In this document: piece by piece, positions 44,674 to 51,936 of the stretch
How the letters are laid out: each line of letters begins with the position of its first letter
How positions within the stretch are numbered: position 1 is the stretch's first letter
Notes under the pieces: generated by a model
Databases searched by the model: none
What the model saw: the letters and a program-made list of their open reading frames with translations, nothing else
Told to the model about the DNA's origin: nothing
Made by a program: the position numbers and the translations under genes
From: an uncultured Acidobacteriota bacterium
GTDB lineage: Bacteria > Acidobacteriota > Thermoanaerobaculia > UBA5066 > Gp7-AA6
DNA length: 64,000 nucleotides
Assembly: GCA_963782585.1 (NCBI GenBank)
Contig: CAWAKL010000006.1
Location: 15,982 to 79,981 of the forward strand
Reading direction: 5' to 3'

Positions 44674-44749
44674 GCCCAGGTAGCTCAGTTGGTAGAGCAA
44701 GGGACTGAAAATCCCTGTGTCGGCGGTTCAATTCCGTCCCTGGGCACCA
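44674..44749 (+). tRNA. tRNA-Phe (GAA)
   Basis: GCCCAGG/CCTGGGC acceptor, AGGGA-CTGAAAA-TCCCT and CCA end; 76 nt. Confidence 0.97.
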
Positions 44750-44770
44750 TCTTCCACTGAGAGCCCACCG

Positions 44771-45286
44771 ATGATCCTCAAAGTCGCGAAGCTCGGCGTT
44801 AAGACGCTGCGCCAGGTCTCCCGGGACGTGGACCCGAAGGCGCTCTCCCGCGGCGACTACGAGCCGTTCATGTCGGATCTCGAAGACACGATGCGCGAGT
44901 ACGACGGGACGGGCATCGCGGCGCCCCAGGTCTTCACGCCCCTGCGCGCGTTCCTCTACGAAGTCCATCCCGAGACGCGCAAGCGCAAGGAGCCGGACGT
45001 GCCGTTGACCGCGCTCTTCAATGCGACCTACGAGGCTGTCGGAGACGAGATGGAGGAGGACTCGGAGGGCTGCCTCTCGGTGCCTTTCCTCTGGGGCGGC
45101 GTCGTGCCGCGGTTCTCGACGATCCGCGTCCAGGCCCTCGACCGCAGCGGAAAGAAGACCTCCTTCGAGGCGTCGGGGTATCACGCCCGGGTGCTCCAGC
45201 ACGAGATCGACCACCTGAACGGGCTCGTCTACCTCGACCGCATGCCCGATATGAAGAGCCTCGCCTACACGGTCAAGTTCGGCTAG
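44771..45286 (+). CDS. def: Peptide deformylase
   Basis: [13 protein letters not shown] and QHEIDHL motifs. Confidence 0.95.
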
Positions 45287-45307: not shown

Positions 45308-45856
<549 letters not shown>

Positions 45857-45860
<4 letters not shown>

Positions 45861-47602
45861 CCGAAGCGGGCGTCGTCGAGGCCGCGGTTCTCTCGCCGCC
45901 GGCCGAGAAGCTGCGCGAGCGCATCGAGGCTTCGCCGGTCGCCGCACGGACCCGCGTCGTCGATCTCGACCTGCCCACGATCGAAGTCGGGCCGACGGAC
46001 TGGCTCGCGTTGGCGAGCTACCTGCGCGACGACGCGGGCTGTCAGTACGACCTCTTTCTGGATCTCTGCGGCGTCGACAACCTGAGACGACGGGGTGTGA
46101 AGAAGGCCAGCCGCTTCGAGGCGGTCGTCCACCTTCACTCGCTCTCCCGAAACGAGCACGTGCGTGTCCGGGTGGTCCTCCCCGACGACGCGAAGCCCTC
46201 GCTGCCGAGCGTCGACGGCGTCTGGCCGGCGGCGAACTGGTTCGAACGTGAGGCCTACGACCTCTACGGCTTCGACTTCCCGGGCCATCCCAACCTGCAC
46301 CGCATCCTCTGCCACGACGCATTCGTCGGGCACGCGCTCCGGAAGGACTATGCGCCGGGCCAGCGCTGGTTCTTCGCGGAGGAAGACCTGCGGTTCCCGG
46401 AGTGGGCGAAGGAGACCGACGTCAGGGCCGGGCACTTCGAGACGCAGACGATCTCGATCGGCCCGTCCCATCCCGCGACGCACGGCATCATCCACCTGGT
46501 CGCCCGTCTCGACGGCGAAAGGATCGTCCGGGCCGAGACGATGATCGGCTACCTCCACCGGTGCTTCGAGAAGATGGCCGAGAAGCACCACTGGAACCAG
46601 ATCATCCCCTACACCGACCGGCTCAACTACGTCTCGGCCATGATCAACGGGGTCGGTTACGTCCGGACGGTCGAGAAGATGCTCGGGATCGAGATCCCGG
46701 ACCGCGGACGGCTCGTGCGCACGATCCTCTCCGAGTTCTCGCGGATCATGGACCACTGCGTCTGCATCGGCGCGAACCTGGTCGACATCGGCGCCCTGAC
46801 CAACTTCACGTACCTCTACCAGAACCGCGAGTTCATCTACGACCTCCTCGAGGCCTGCTGCGGCGCGCGTCTGACGGTGTCGTACGTTCGCGTCGGCGGC
46901 CTCGCGGTCGACGTCCCGGATGACTTCGTGCTGCGCTGCCGGAAGCTCCTCGACACGATTCCGGAGTTTCTCGACGACGTCGAGAAGCTCGTCAACAACA
47001 ACCGGATCGTGCGCAACCGGCTCTCCGGGACGGGGATCATCAGCCGCGAGCAGGCCATCGCCTGGGGCCTGACGGGACCGATGCTCCGCGCCTCGGGCGT
47101 CGCCTACGACGTCCGCCGGGCGCGGCCCTACGACTTCTACGACAAGTTCGACTGGGACATCCCGATCGCCCAGGACGGCGACAACTTCGCGCGGTACCTC
47201 GTGCGGATGGAGGAGATGAGGCAGTCCCTCAAGATCATCCGCCAGGCCCTGGAAATCCTTCCGCCGAAGGGTCCCGTGAACTCCGACGACTGGCACGTCG
47301 TGCTGCCGCCGAAGGACGCCGTCTACCACGACATGGAGTCGCTCATCTATCACTTCAAGCTCGTGATGGAAGGCATCCGCGTTCCCGCGGGGGAGCGCTA
47401 CGAGTGGATCGAAGGCGGAACCGGCGAGCTCGGCTTCTACGCGATCTCGGACGGACGCGGCGGGCCGTACCGCCTGAAGGTCCGGCCGCCGTGCTTCCCG
47501 AACCTGGCGGCCTTCGAGAAAATGATCGTCGGCGGCAGGGTTTCCGACGCCGTGGCGACCCTGGGGACCCTCAACGTCATCGCGGGGGAGCTCGACCGAT
47601 GA
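45857..47602 (+). CDS. nuoCD: NADH-quinone oxidoreductase fused subunit C/D
   Basis: [44 protein letters not shown] and GELDR motifs; TTGA overlap. Confidence 0.93.
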
Positions 47603-48294
47603 GCGGCGTCGTCGACGTTTCCCGGAAGTACCCGGAGAAGCTGACGTTTCTCCAGCGGCTCTACATCCCGGAGATCCTGCGCGGCATGTCCGTCACGATC
47701 CGCCATCTCGTGCGGAATCTCGCGAACATGAAGCGGATGCCGACGATCCTCTACCCCGAGGTCAAGCGCAACTATTCCGGGCGGTTCCGCGGCAAGCACA
47801 TCCTCAAGGCGCGCGAAGACGGCACGCTCAAGTGCGTGGCCTGCTACATGTGCCAGCAGGCGTGCCCGGCCGAGTGCATCACGATCGTCGCGGGCGAGCA
47901 CCCGAAGATCGCGTACGAGAAGTACCCGGTCGTATTCGACATCGACATGATGCGCTGCGTCTTCTGCGGGTTCTGCGTCGACGCGTGCCCGAAGGACGCC
48001 ATCTGGATGACCCGCAACTACGAGATGGCCTTCTTCACGCGCGAGGACGCCGTCTATTCGATCGACCGGCTGAAAGAGACACCCGAGGAGATCGCGAAGC
48101 ACGGCTACGGCTACCGTCCGTACTACCCGGGAGACGGCACGACGCCTCCCACCGACGCGTCGCGGCTTCCGGTCCTGCCGGGCTCGGGCGAGCGCGACCG
48201 GCTGCGCGAGGGCGCGGTCCCGCTGCCCGACCGCGACGCGGGCCCGGGCCCCCTGAACGCACCGAGCCAGGCGGAAAGACCGTTCCCCGCCTGA
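47599..48294 (+). CDS. nuoI: NADH-quinone oxidoreductase subunit I
   Basis: [21 protein letters not shown] and [12 protein letters not shown] motifs. Confidence 0.93.
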
Positions 48295-49055
48295 GAATCT
48301 CCTCCCTCCGTCTTCCGGGTCTCCTGCGGGGCAGCGGCGCGAAGAGCGTCGCCGCGCTGACCGGGCTCGACGAAGCGGGCTGGCGCGCGCTCGCCGGGGC
48401 CTACCCTGAGCTCCCCGAGAACCCCGGTCCCGCCGCCGCCCGGCAGCGGGCGAGGCTCGTCCGAATGGCCTCGCGGGCGCTGGCCACGGGGAAGTGGGAT
48501 CTGCGTCTCGAGGGCGACCCGCCGGACGCGAGGCCCTGTGTCTACGTCACGGCCCACATCGGCGCGATGCAGGCCCTCCGCTATGCGCTGCGCGCCCGCG
48601 GCGTTCCCGCCGCGACGGTTCTGGGCCCGCACAACCTCGACCGGCGCGAGGCTATCCCGCAGGATGAAGTCTTCGACCGCCGCTACGCTCTCGACTTTCC
48701 GCACGCGCTGCCGTCCTCGGCCACCCATCGGCTTCGCAGCGCCCTCAAACGCGGGAGCCTCGTCGCCGCGGGCGATTTGCCCGAGCGCGGCGGAGTGCCG
48801 GCGCGCGTCCTCGGAGGGCCGGCGCTCCTGGACCCCCGTCCGTTCCGGCTGGCCCGCGTCGCCGGCGCCGCCTGCCGTCCCGCCTTCGCGACGTTTCCCG
48901 GCGGACGCTGGACGCTGACGCTCGGGCCGGCGCTCGCGGGCGACGAATCGGCCTGTGCCGAAGCCTACGGCCGGGTGTTCGCCCGCGTCGCTGCGGCGGC
49001 GCCGCTCGACATCGACGGCATGGTGTACGCGTATCGCTGCGGTCTGACTCGATGA
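48291..49055 (+). CDS. Divergent LpxL/HtrB-like (LPLAT) acyltransferase
   Basis: VYVTAHIG, RSALKRG..AAGD, VPARVLGGPALL..PFRLAR. Start inferred as CTG overlapping the nuoI stop; ATG 48465 is the alternative. Confidence 0.7.
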   Translation: MRISSLRLPGLLRGSGAKSVAALTGLDEAGWRALAGAYPELPENPGPAAARQRARLVRMASRALATGKWDLRLEGDPPDARPCVYVTAHIGAMQALRYALRARGVPAATVLGPHNLDRREAIPQDEVFDRRYALDFPHALPSSATHRLRSALKRGSLVAAGDLPERGGVPARVLGGPALLDPRPFRLARVAGAACRPAFATFPGGRWTLTLGPALAGDESACAEAYGRVFARVAAAAPLDIDGMVYAYRCGLTR

Positions 49056-50368
49056 GCCTCATCGAGCACCTGCGTTCGGTGGCCCGACGCGCGCCGGGGG
49101 CGAGGGCGCTCTCCTCCGGCGAGCGTTCGCTGACTTACGACGAGCTCATCGAGACGATCGAGCGGCGCGCGGAGATTCTCGGCCCGGGTTCCCGGGCGAA
49201 ATGCGTTCCGCTGGACGGCCGGGACGCCGTCGGGTTTCTCGTCGATCTCTTTGCGGCCGGCCTCTGCGGCCGGGCCGGAGTGGCCCACTCGCCCTCGATA
49301 CCGGCTTCGGTGCGGGCTCTTCGCGAGGCAAGCCTCGAACGCGTGCCGCCGCCTCCAGGCTCGACGGTCTTCTATTCCTCGGGCAGCGTCGGTCCGGCCC
49401 GGGCCGTGCCGCTCTCGGAAGCGAACCTGGAGTCCGCCGCGCTCGCCTTCGAGCCGTGGGGGGAGCTCACGTCCGAGGACCGGCTGGCGATCGGGCTGTC
49501 CCCGGCCCAGATCTTCGCCTGCGTGCGCGGAGCGCTGAACGCTCTGTTCGTCGGCGCTGAGGCCTTCTTCTTCGCGACGCATCGGGACCCTCTGCGGGAC
49601 GCCGAGAATCTCGGCGCGACCAAAGTCCTGCTTCCCAGCGCGCTCGTCCGGCTGGCCGCGCGCCACGCCTCCCGCACGAACCTGCGGGCTCTCGTCTGCG
49701 GAGGCGGCGCGCTCGACCCGGAAGCGGCCGAGGCCGTCGAGAGACAGCGCGGCGTGCCTGTGCGGGCGGGGTACGGGATGACGGAGTCGGCGGGCCTCGC
49801 CTCCCGGCAGCCGCTGAGCCGTCCGCGGCGCGCGGGGTCCGTCGGGGTTCCGGCGCCGGGCCTCGCGGTGGTGATTGCGTCCGAAGACGGAAGCCCGGTC
49901 GCGCCGGGGGAATCCGGAGAGATCCGGCTCTCGGGTCCGGCCGTGTTCTCCGGGTACCTATCTTCCGAGGACGGCTCGCCGTTCGACGCCGCCGGGAGGC
50001 TTCGGACGGGAGACGTCGGATTCCTCGACGAGGCGGGGGAGCTTCACGTGCGCGGGCGCCTGGCCTTTGCGCTCACGGCCGGCGATCGCATCCTCTGCGT
50101 CGAGGAGGTCGAGGCCGCGCTCGCCGAACACCCGGACGTGTTCGAGGCCGCGGCGGCGCCGCTCGAGCGCGATTTCGGCGTCCTCGTCGTTTCCCGCGAT
50201 GGCCGGCTCGCGGTCGACGAGCTCCGCGCCTACGCCGAGAAGCGCCTCCCGGCTTTCGCCCGCCCCCGGCGGATCCTGGCCGTCCCGGCGCTCCCGCGCA
50301 CGCCCGCGGGCAAGATCGACCGCGCTGCCGCTTCCCGATGGCTGACGGACTCCTCGGGCGCCGCGTGA
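49052..50368 (+). CDS. Class I adenylate-forming enzyme (AMP-binding)
   Basis: YSSGSVG, GYGMTES, RTGDVG and PRTPAGKIDR motifs. Confidence 0.9.
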   Translation: MSLIEHLRSVARRAPGARALSSGERSLTYDELIETIERRAEILGPGSRAKCVPLDGRDAVGFLVDLFAAGLCGRAGVAHSPSIPASVRALREASLERVPPPPGSTVFYSSGSVGPARAVPLSEANLESAALAFEPWGELTSEDRLAIGLSPAQIFACVRGALNALFVGAEAFFFATHRDPLRDAENLGATKVLLPSALVRLAARHASRTNLRALVCGGGALDPEAAEAVERQRGVPVRAGYGMTESAGLASRQPLSRPRRAGSVGVPAPGLAVVIASEDGSPVAPGESGEIRLSGPAVFSGYLSSEDGSPFDAAGRLRTGDVGFLDEAGELHVRGRLAFALTAGDRILCVEEVEAALAEHPDVFEAAAAPLERDFGVLVVSRDGRLAVDELRAYAEKRLPAFARPRRILAVPALPRTPAGKIDRAAASRWLTDSSGAA

Positions 50369-51495
50369 CGGCCGCTGCAGGGGGAGCCGGGCGAGCGGCG
50401 CGGGCCGCGCGCGGCCGCGCGACGCCGTTCTACCTCTTCGACCGGGACGTCGCGCGGAGAAACCTGCGCCGCCTGCGCGAGGCGGCGGGTCCGGACGCCG
50501 AGCTCTTCTATCCGTGGAAGTGCAATCGTCATCCGGAGCTTCGAAATCTCGCGGAGCAGGCCGGATTCGGCGCGGAAGTATCGGCCGCGGACGACCTCGT
50601 GGTCTCCCTGCGTTCGCACGGCTCCCGCGTTCTCTACCAGGGCCCGGTGAAGCCGGAACGCTGCATTGACCTCGCCCTCGCGGCCGGCGCGTGGCTCGTC
50701 GCCGATTCCGCGGAGGATGCCGGGGCGATTCTCGAGCGGGCGCACGCTCGGCGGATCGTCCCGCGCTACCTCCTCCGGTTCCGTCCAGGCGCGGCGCAGC
50801 CGACGCAGAGGGCGTTCGGGCTCACGCCGTCCCGCGTGCGGGGCTTCTGCGCCCGGCTCGCGCGCGAAGGTCGGCCTCTGCCCTCCGGTCTCGCTTTTCA
50901 CCTGGGAACGCGGCTGTTCTCGCCCGCGCCCTACGTCTCAGCCGTGCGCGAAGCCGGACGGCTTGCCGCGAGTCTGCGGCCCTACGGGGTCCGGGTCGAA
51001 GTCCTCGACGTCGGAGGTGGCTTTCCCGCCGGAACGCCGTGCGCGCACCTGCGTGCCATCCGGGGTGCGGTGCGCAGCGCCGGACTCGGAGCCGCCACGC
51101 TCTTCCTCGAGCCGGGCCGCGCCGTCGCGTCCGATGCCTTTCATCTCGTGACGCGTGTCGTGCGGGTCACCGGCCGGAGGGTCTACGTGGACGCGTCGCG
51201 GATGTCCCACGCCTTTTTCGCCGCATGGGCCCCCCACGACTTCCACCCCGTGCCGAGGCGCCCGGGCCGCGGCACCGTGGAAATCGCCGGACCGCTTCCG
51301 GTGGGCATCGACCGCTTCTCGAATGCGGAAGAGATCGGCCGGCCGCGCGAGGGCGATCTGCTCGTGATCGGCTCGGTCGGCGCCTACAACCTGAACGTGG
51401 CCAACACCTGGGCCGGCCGGTTGCCGGAAGTCGTGGCGATCGGCGTCAGTGCGTCGCGGGGTGCCCGTCGGTCCGGTGGACGGACTCGACGGTAA
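50365..51495 (+). CDS. Group IV PLP decarboxylase (diaminopimelate decarboxylase-like, divergent)
   Basis: TPFYLFD, YPWKCN (PLP Lys), FHLGT, LDVGGGF, EPGRAVA and GAY motifs; GTGA overlap. Confidence 0.85.
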   Translation: MTAAAGGAGRAARAARGRATPFYLFDRDVARRNLRRLREAAGPDAELFYPWKCNRHPELRNLAEQAGFGAEVSAADDLVVSLRSHGSRVLYQGPVKPERCIDLALAAGAWLVADSAEDAGAILERAHARRIVPRYLLRFRPGAAQPTQRAFGLTPSRVRGFCARLAREGRPLPSGLAFHLGTRLFSPAPYVSAVREAGRLAASLRPYGVRVEVLDVGGGFPAGTPCAHLRAIRGAVRSAGLGAATLFLEPGRAVASDAFHLVTRVVRVTGRRVYVDASRMSHAFFAAWAPHDFHPVPRRPGRGTVEIAGPLPVGIDRFSNAEEIGRPREGDLLVIGSVGAYNLNVANTWAGRLPEVVAIGVSASRGARRSGGRTRR

Positions 51496-51880
51496 TCACG
51501 ATCTCCTGGTCCGAGACGCCCTTTTCCTTGAGCTGCCACGCGAGGCGCGCCTCCGCCAGGCAGATCCCGCAGCCCGCCGCGTGCTTGTCGACGAAGCAGG
51601 TGAGAAGCGTCTTGTGCTTGAACATCGGGCTCTCCGCGCACTCGCAGAAGCAGTGGAGCTTGTCGAGCGTCGCGGGGATCTTGCGGGCGATCTCGTAGCC
51701 CTGCTTCACCTCGGCGTCCCAGCCCTTCTCGAAGAGCTTCGGGTCGAGCGTGGGACGCGTCTCCTTGCAGTCCGCGCAGGAGCTCTTGGGCTCGGGCGCG
51801 GCCTTGCCTTTGGCAGTGTCCCCGACCAGCGACAGCGCGGGCGCGAGCAGGAGGATCCCGGCGAGCGTTCGGATCTTCAT
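51446..51880 (-). CDS. Exported PCYCGC-motif-like Cys-rich protein
   Basis: Signal peptide, CADC and HCFCEC..H..LLTCF..HAAGCGIC. Confidence 0.8.
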   Translation of the reverse strand: MKIRTLAGILLLAPALSLVGDTAKGKAAPEPKSSCADCKETRPTLDPKLFEKGWDAEVKQGYEIARKIPATLDKLHCFCECAESPMFKHKTLLTCFVDKHAAGCGICLAEARLAWQLKEKGVSDQEIVITVESVHRTDGHPATH

Positions 51881-51936
51881 GCCGCCCTCAACCCGCAGGA
51901 CGTCCGCCTTCTTCCCCGAAAAACGGCACGGACAAC

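Follow-up and report, generated by a model that had tools for sequence, protein, structure and literature searches.

In Vibrio cholerae, the AlmEFG operon is described in PMC4278540 as combining an adenylating ligase with an LpxL-family transferase to place glycine onto lipid A. The BtrJ/BtrI/BtrK enzymes of butirosin biosynthesis, together with CtaD/E/F and FlvN/L/O, are outlined in PMC11350588 as adenylating glutamate or aspartate and tethering it by the side chain, after which a group IV pyridoxal 5'-phosphate (PLP) enzyme removes the alpha-carboxylate and the resulting gamma-aminobutyric acid (GABA) or beta-alanine unit is passed on by an acyltransferase. BtrK itself decarboxylates carrier-bound glutamate. 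The OlsH-OlsG-OlsI operon of Singulisphaera acidiphila, as summarised in PMC12493201, encodes an adenylating enzyme, an N-methyltransferase and an O-acyltransferase that yield (trimethyl)ornithine lipid without a carrier, while the acyltransferase PatA is reported in PMC8519569 to use a catalytic His126 assisted by the distant Glu200. Here, we describe a module of three genes, for a divergent acyltransferase (gene A), an adenylating enzyme (gene B) and a PLP decarboxylase (gene C), in a 64,000-nucleotide stretch (the window) of contig CAWAKL010000006.1 from an uncultured Acidobacteriota bacterium (assembly GCA_963782585.1). The window holds the A-B-C portion of an operon that is conserved but lineage-restricted, and that probably descends from a unit of four genes with a methyltransferase gene (MT) at its head.

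Results

The A-B-C module of the window

The genes and junctions of the module lie at the following window positions, all on the forward strand.

48291(?)..49055, +, gene A, predicted divergent PatA/LpxL-type (LPLAT, Lip_A_acyltrans-like) acyltransferase, about 254 aa
49052..50368, +, gene B, predicted compact ANL adenylating enzyme, coenzyme A (CoA)-ligase-like, 438 aa
50338..51495, +, gene C, predicted divergent group IV (fold-type III) PLP decarboxylase, 385 aa from the ATG at 50338
48291..48294, +, nuoI/A junction CTGA, the CTG being the probable non-canonical start of A
49052..49055, +, A/B overlap, an ATGA stop/start read in the sequence
50338..50368, +, B/C overlap of 31 nt with the C start at ATG 50338, favoured by the N-termini of homologues
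50365-50368, +, alternative B/C junction, a 4-nt GTGA overlap with the C start at 50365

All three open reading frames (ORFs) are intact, with a third-position GC of 0.82-0.86, and their G+C content of 72-75% compares with 67-68% in the flanks and 68% over the window. The host assembly is metagenome-derived, comprises 3.57 Mb in 14 contigs and is 72% complete. An earlier annotation made without database searches (the sequence-only reading) had proposed three genes of these enzyme classes joined by 4-nt stop/start overlaps. Both the genes and their ends were borne out, and the ATGA overlap of A and B stands; the GTGA that would give the same arrangement at the B/C junction exists, but the homologues favour the longer overlap.

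The start of A is unusual. No in-frame ATG, GTG or TTG occurs between 48051, where the scan began, and 48465, and the first ATG is that at 48465, yet conserved residues are encoded upstream of it. The CTG at 48291 overlaps the nuoI stop codon, and this junction is kept in the three closest genomes (L001-L003). In all four of these genomes, which have lost MT, A lacks a canonical start codon and opens with CTGA at the end of nuoI, suggesting either translational coupling or a non-canonical start created by the deletion.

Synteny points to a four-gene ancestor

With the profile of A, a pattern scan over 185,579 species genomes returned 37 loci, all from Acidobacteriota or Thermoanaerobaculia. 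B is present in 23 of these loci and C in 19, always with B, hence A-B-C occurs in 19/37; four loci have B without C, and A stands with neither in 14, one of which retains an MT remnant at the contig edge. The expectation that the triplet would be co-located in other genomes was thus upheld, and in two genomic contexts. The first context, in which the module lies between nuoI and genes for a PCYCGC-domain protein and a 2-oxoacid:ferredoxin oxidoreductase (OFOR), accounts for 29 of the 37 loci. The other eight (L028-L035) have a different setting, and five of them (L029-L033) carry MT-A-B-C, which in the three loci with scanned flanks has purE/purK or Sir2 genes on one side and a superoxide dismutase (SOD) gene on the other. 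In both of these unrelated contexts the four genes overlap or nearly abut. Module G+C was 2-8 points above that of the flanks in 21/21 loci tested as well as in the window, including where A stands alone.

MT, which is a class I S-adenosylmethionine (SAM) methyltransferase, lies directly upstream of A in 18 of the 37 loci and is missing from the window and from L001-L003; its sole NCBIfam match is the demethylmenaquinone methyltransferase model, far under the cut-off. A tree of A was built with 36 rows after removal of L003, L035 and L036, which are frameshifted or partial. MT-A-B-C is scattered throughout this tree, and at least four changes are required to account for the A-only state. The ancestral unit was probably MT-A-B-C. 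The three-gene module of the sequence-only reading therefore holds insofar as A-B-C is kept, but it has to be widened to a probable four-gene ancestor with dispensable parts: B, C and MT are optional and the three genes are not an obligate unit, since A is alone in 14/37 loci and MT-B-C is found apart from A in one genus (g12, below).

The module is restricted to a few genera

The distribution sample comprised 401 genomes of the class in 133 genera. A was found in 30 genomes from four genera (g1 18/23, g6 7/7, g12 3/3 and g14 1/1); the host genome is counted in the 30 and stands outside the g1 fraction, and the g14 count rests on the unpublished genome G104. Within the host's own genus, A is missing from 5 of the 23 other genomes. 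Full-length C, defined as a C-family gene scoring 466 bits or more, is present in 16/401 genomes, all 16 of them A-positive, and lies within about 3 kb of A in 13.

The three g12 genomes have MT-B-C contiguous and A elsewhere. In G080 the two are 1.6 Mb apart, A being flanked by a STAS gene and a TonB-dependent receptor gene, and in G060 and G204 A and MT-B-C are on different contigs. A short-chain fatty acid transporter gene (PF02667; L050:3162-4574) lies directly upstream of MT-B-C in G080 on the same strand; it was considered as a clue to the substrate and rejected because it is missing at the same place in L052 and L053, leaving it in one of the three g12 genomes. A genome of another family of the class, G130 (L051:6817-9598), encodes a group IV decarboxylase of 491 aa with 30% identity to C, directly followed by a weak ANL-like protein of 437 aa, in the order opposite to B-C, without an acyltransferase and adjoining cytochrome c' genes.

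Gene A has the fold of late acyltransferases and an altered acid site

Gene A matches no Pfam family at E<=0.1 and falls below the gathering threshold of Lip_A_acyltrans (PF03279); the NCBIfam phosphatidylinositol mannoside (PIM) acyltransferase model gives E 0.01 and 14.9 bits against a 209-bit cut-off. The profile of A has no match at E<=10 among PDB sequences, so its kinship is visible only by fold search and profile-profile comparison. The AlphaFold model of A (pLDDT 90.5, pTM 0.88) was matched in Foldseek by the PIM acyltransferase PatA of Mycobacterium smegmatis (E 4e-10, TM 0.62-0.64), followed by LpxM (6e-7) and then PlsC (9e-4), and 26 of 30 ESM Atlas matches were PF03279 clusters. 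The host genome encodes three canonical PF03279 proteins elsewhere (190, 115 and 96 bits), and hhalign of A against these paralogues gave 92% probability with E 6.6e-7. A has 114 homologues at 40-95% identity, some of which carry the source names 'lauroyl/myristoyl acyltransferase' or 'LPLAT superfamily'.

In A, 'HIGAMQ' corresponds to 'HIGGWE', 'HVGNWE' and 'HLGNWE' in the aligned host paralogues, and the profile alignment places 'TAHIGAMQ' on 'SAHIGGWE' and 'AAGDL' on 'ILVDQ'. Residues H89, G91, D162, R186 and R189 are invariant among the 22 aligned members of the A family, D162 aligning with the D of the 'DQ/DR' block of the paralogues, while the acid site of the HX4E motif (+5) is Q, A or R in 22/22 members and E in the three paralogues. 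On its modelled fold, A is predicted to be a PatA/LpxL-fold O-acyltransferase that keeps the catalytic His and, at the 'DQ' position, a conserved Asp (D162), and has the HX4E acid replaced by Q, R or A. D162 may be the candidate remote acid, in the manner of Glu200 of PatA.

Gene B belongs to a separate clade of ANL enzymes

Both ANL domains are present in B, which matches Pfam AMP-binding (6.8e-37) and AMP-binding_C, and the SSGS.G, YGxTE, GD, GR and GK motifs are invariant in the family, including the C-terminal GK lysine. B is below the cut-off of all 25 NCBIfam models listed. Its top matches there are fatty-acid-CoA ligase models, all far under their cut-offs (145 bits against 650 for the FadD7 family model), and it scores 101 bits against the 330 required by menE (TIGR01923). 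The best PDB matches are oxalate-CoA ligase 5ie0 (6.4e-38), then MenE and malonyl-CoA ligases. B has 85 homologues at E<=1e-30. In a search of 5.8 billion proteins its family stood apart as a clade of its own, identity being 42% or more within it and no more than 34% beyond it, where malonyl-CoA synthases at 33-34% are the nearest named proteins; one unnamed 551-aa protein at 41% sits between the family and the outsiders. B is 55-75 aa shorter than MatB or oxalate-CoA ligase, chiefly in the N-terminal domain. It is thus a short ANL ligase, predicted from its motifs to be adenylation-competent. Two apparent B-C fusions occur among the homologues, P0117 and P0129; the latter was rejected as a natural fusion, as it derives from a frameshifted region on the contig of L009.

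Gene C is a decarboxylase homologue that lacks the active-site cysteine

C matches Pfam Orn_Arg_deC_N (1.2e-20) and Orn_DAP_Arg_deC. It scores 96.1 bits against the 297.9-bit cut-off of lysA (TIGR01048), and a canonical lysA lies on another contig (contig 12; three frame pieces of 156, 134 and 104 bits, L039-L041) with a further paralogue of 213 bits on contig 14, in agreement with the earlier view that C is not the housekeeping LysA. The family is narrow: no more than 12 of 1.84 billion cluster representatives reach E<=1e-30. Its PDB matches include the diaminopimelate decarboxylase 3vab (5.7e-20), in which 'GPVC' of Brucella LysA is aligned, and BtrK (4.7e-16), the second-best solved match. 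The model of C (pLDDT 85) resembles all kinds of group IV decarboxylases about equally in Foldseek (TM 0.69-0.78 among the matches listed), and because of this similarity to every kind the fold search is uninformative on specificity. NCBIfam naming of the 20 closest outgroup proteins gave sub-threshold 'lysA-like' labels, one of the 20 exceeding the lysA cut-off, and none of the 20 labels indicates a substrate.

All cofactor-binding residues are kept: the PLP lysine K61, the stacking histidine H188, the GGG phosphate loop at G226-228, the EPGR motif at E258-R261 and the GAY motif at G348-Y350 are invariant in the C alignment. The protein has 'YPWKCN', and 'GPLP' occupies the site of 'GPVC' in Brucella LysA and 'GPLC' in BtrK; the position of the active-site Cys is P or G in 19/19 aligned members. 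These deviations, like the 'HIGAMQ' of A and the compactness of B, had been noticed in the sequence-only reading and were all confirmed, as were the three enzyme classes, by Pfam for B and C and by fold and profile-profile comparison for A. C is therefore placed by Pfam and fold as a putative group IV PLP decarboxylase with the active-site Cys replaced by P or G. In ornithine decarboxylase, the Cys of group IV enzymes steers protonation. Consistent with this, the PDB title of entry 9cpz describes a Cys-to-Ser variant of a relative bound to pyridoxamine phosphate (PMP) and an aldehyde.

The window copy of C lacks a 15-17-aa loop ('..R.E.RRD...') immediately after the phosphate-binding GGGF motif (51013-51060). 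This loop carries a near-invariant Glu and Arg and is kept in the six other loci read (L001-L003, L009, L024 and L030) and in 18/18 other aligned members. C is split over frames in 5/19 loci, compared with 1/37 for A and 2/23 for B, from which no conclusion is drawn because frameshifts are common in these assemblies.

No carrier protein or exosortase gene accompanies the module

The sequence-only reading saw no carrier-protein gene in the window, and this absence extends further. A scan of the whole genome, itself 72% complete, found no PP-binding domain on the window's contig, and no carrier-protein gene adjoins the module in any of the 37 loci, where the genes abut or overlap and leave no room for one. 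The two PP-binding matches of the host genome are both on other contigs: one lies within a nonribosomal peptide synthetase (NRPS)-like adenylation-thiolation-thioesterase (A-T-TE) protein of at least 792 aa (L043:148-2526, contig 7), and the other is an 86-aa acyl carrier protein (ACP; L044:1480-1740, contig 1) among genes for a FabG-like reductase (frameshifted), a FabD-like transacylase and a FabA/Z-like dehydratase. The latter genes form a second fatty-acid-type cluster, and its ACP could serve other pathways.

A link to the ligase and decarboxylase pair of exosortase A-associated loci (TIGR03098/TIGR03099), which had been drawn as a precedent, did not survive profile comparison, as B scores 99.5 bits against a cut-off of 592.35 and C 62.7 against 478.45. 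Exosortase-family genes (PF09721) are unlinked to the module, lying on another contig or hundreds of kb away, and one is also present in G024, a genome without C. In the five genomes searched for known N-acylation routes, four of them at least 97% complete, GH3 (PF03321) and OlsB/OlsF (PF13444) were each found in 0/5.

Flanking genes and assembly quality

The neighbours of the module in the window are as follows.

44717-45286, pdf, upstream of the nuo genes
after pdf, nuoB, with one frameshift near 45515
to 47602, nuoCD
47599-48294, nuoI, stop codon at 48292-48294
51446-51895, - strand, small secreted PCYCGC-domain (PF13798) protein, converging on the module
beyond the PCYCGC gene, - strand, OFOR genes

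The Q-module genes of complex I (nuoB, nuoCD and nuoI; 45308-48294) follow pdf as a group, with no nuoA or nuoH among them; in the host genome nuoH is found on contigs C1 and C5. The PCYCGC gene keeps its position in most of the 29 loci with the nuoI...OFOR setting. The N-terminal 70 aa of nuoB are in the frame of nuoCD and the remainder in the +1 frame, one nuoH copy (contig 5) is in six pieces and the lysA of contig 12 is spread over three frames. The host assembly seems rich in insertion-deletion (indel) errors, which limits the reading of frameshifts in the module, and such errors may be behind the 72% completeness.

Discussion

The leading explanation, put forward tentatively at a little short of an even chance, is that the module follows a carrier-free 'activate, decarboxylate, transfer' logic by analogy with Btr/Flv and Alm and decorates a membrane lipid or glycolipid. 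B would form a thioester between one carboxylate of a small amino-dicarboxylic acid, of the Asp or Glu type, and either CoA or a distant ACP, and C would remove the remaining alpha-carboxylate to leave a beta-alanyl or GABA-type aminoacyl thioester. MT, where present, would N-methylate the amine. A, acting at the membrane like PatA, LpxL or AlmG, would then pass the group to a lipid or glycolipid hydroxyl. The tailoring genes B, C and MT would be optional, and A without them presumably uses an ordinary acyl donor. An Asp- or Glu-type substrate on CoA is preferred because B is kin to dicarboxylate-CoA ligases and C to BtrK. A lipid or surface product is what we infer from the fold family of A, its only pointer.

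Several findings support decoration of a membrane lipid by this route. MT-A-B-C recurs in two genomic contexts, A accompanies full-length C in all 16 genomes that have it, C never occurs without B, and the genes have a common GC excess. Furthermore, A has the fold of membrane glycolipid acyltransferases, the relatives of B use small dicarboxylates and BtrK ranks high among the solved matches of C. Other findings weigh against it. No locus has an adjoining carrier, while all known analogues use one. The 14 lone copies of A, the multiple changes these imply on the tree and the separation in g12 indicate that A is independent of B and C and that adjacency is not universal. The co-occurrence is counted over few genomes, and these are relatives of one another. 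The A-negative genome G352 (99% complete, 4% contaminated) has a 119-aa C-like fragment of 200 bits at a contig end. The loss of the Cys from C and of the HX4E acid from A could mean other chemistry, and the window copy lacks a canonical A start and has a private loop deletion in C.

A fuller version of the same idea is unlikely to hold in every particular. It would make the system an Alm/Btr hybrid without a carrier, in which a MatB-like ligase forms aspartyl- or glutamyl-CoA by way of the side chain, the naturally Cys-less decarboxylase uses another proton donor to give beta-alanyl- or GABA-CoA, and the PatA-like transferase, lacking the HX4E acid, esterifies with this unit lipid A or another envelope glycolipid, with optional N-methylation. 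The outcome would be a new cationic or zwitterionic decoration in soil Acidobacteriota, encoded by a cassette that is gained and lost.

The main rival, which we consider rather unlikely, is that A and MT-B-C are functionally separate and merely share a variable locus. A would be a lineage-specific late acyltransferase moving ordinary acyl groups from acyl-ACP or acyl-CoA onto lipid A or another glycolipid, and MT-B-C would be a soluble pathway that activates a small organic or amino acid with CoA, decarboxylates it and methylates it, either towards a compatible solute, amine or signal or in catabolism. The lone copies of A keep their invariant residues, and in each of the three g12 genomes MT-B-C forms an unbroken run that does not include A, as this proposal would have it. 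What argues the other way is that in two contexts A lies between MT and B and is tightly joined to them or overlaps them, that full-length C comes with A in 16/16 genomes and that all four genes have a common GC signature. The nearest relatives of B, malonyl- and oxalyl-CoA ligases, are soluble, and the distant decarboxylase and ANL pair of G130 also does without an acyltransferase. The transporter directly upstream of MT-B-C in G080 would likewise suit a soluble pathway, but it is confined to one of three g12 genomes.

A doubtful alternative is an Ols-like aminolipid, in which B takes the role of OlsH, activating a (3-hydroxy) fatty acid by adenylation and coupling it to an amino acid or amine, A adds an ester-linked 'piggyback' fatty acid by the acyloxyacyl chemistry of LpxL/OlsA, MT N-methylates the head group like OlsG and C decarboxylates the head-group amino acid. 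The Singulisphaera operon described in PMC12493201 provides a precedent for an adenylating enzyme beside an N-methyltransferase and an O-acyltransferase. Such a route needs no carrier protein, an optional MT and C would suit head-group tailoring, and the failure to find the GH3 and OlsB/OlsF routes would leave room for it. Although the top NCBIfam matches of B are fatty-acid-CoA ligase models, its closest kin outside its own family are malonyl- and oxalyl-CoA ligases rather than long-chain or amide-forming enzymes, and B is an ANL enzyme, not GH3. Moreover, A would have no substrate in A-only genomes, and no paper on Thermoanaerobaculia lipids of this kind was found in the literature searched.

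It is also improbable that the window copy is decaying or mis-assembled, a proposal compatible with any of the other readings. The absent canonical start of A, the missing MT and the loop lost from C here alone would be signs of decay, and C is frameshifted in other loci as nuoB, lysA and nuoH are in this assembly. Many frameshifts occur in these assemblies, however, and sequencing errors may account for them, the three ORFs are intact with a strong third-position GC bias, the CTGA junction is kept in the nearest genomes and the models of A and C fold confidently.

That these are the housekeeping enzymes LysA, MenE or FadD, and LpxL, odd through divergence alone, is very improbable: the family-level matches to the lysA, menE and fatty-acid-CoA ligase models and of MT to the demethylmenaquinone methyltransferase model are weak, all scores are 3-10 times under the curated cut-offs, canonical lysA and PF03279 genes are present elsewhere in the genome, and the module is confined to 4 of 133 genera and absent from part of its own genus. 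A menaquinone pathway, considered for the weak MenE likeness of B, the weak UbiE/MenG likeness of MT and the nuo neighbours, was rejected on those scores and on the lack of nuo linkage in 8/37 loci.

If lipid decoration by the module is correct, it would be a new way of placing amine groups on bacterial envelope lipids, and one that dispenses with a carrier protein, which all characterised analogues require. Moreover, two of its enzymes would act without a residue regarded as central in the respective family, the HX4E acid in the case of the late acyltransferase and the active-site Cys in that of the group IV decarboxylase. The hosts are abundant but uncultured soil Acidobacteriota, about whose envelope chemistry almost nothing is known, and the repeated loss of the module provides natural with-and-without comparisons. 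If the lipid reading fails, a small lineage-specific operon remains.

Comparison with known systems

Each gene of the module belongs to a known superfamily but to an uncharacterised narrow clade within it, none of the three scores above a curated family cut-off, and the carrier-less combination was not found in the literature searched, nor was any ligase-decarboxylase-acyltransferase cluster of this kind. The exosortase A-associated pair likewise has an ANL ligase beside a group IV decarboxylase, at the distant scores given above. LysA and C have a common fold and share the PLP Lys and the HxG, GGG, EPGR and GAY motifs, and differ in the 'GPxC' Cys, which is P or G in C. MatB (malonyl-CoA synthase) and oxalate-CoA ligase are the nearest characterised relatives of B and have the core ANL motifs in common with it.

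Among whole systems, the Ols operon, as presented in PMC12493201, resembles the module in being carrier-free but uses a GH3 rather than an ANL enzyme and an alpha/beta-hydrolase rather than an LPLAT, with no decarboxylase in that account. The proposed 'activate, modify, transfer' logic, already suggested by the sequence-only reading, parallels the Btr/Flv/Cta (PMC11350588) and AlmEFG (PMC4278540) systems as those sources describe them. The Btr, Cta and Flv systems all have a dedicated ACP in the description of PMC11350588, whereas none adjoins the module, and BtrK keeps the Cys ('GPLC') that C lacks. AlmEFG, in the account of PMC4278540, needs the carrier protein AlmF and is given without a decarboxylase or methyltransferase, so that its likeness to the module would be one of logic alone. 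A falls under the Pfam threshold for PF03279, and its HX4E acid is changed to Q, R or A throughout the family. Nevertheless, PatA, LpxL and LpxM share with A a common fold, the His of the 'AH.G' block, the Asp at the 'DQ' block and a length of about 250 aa.

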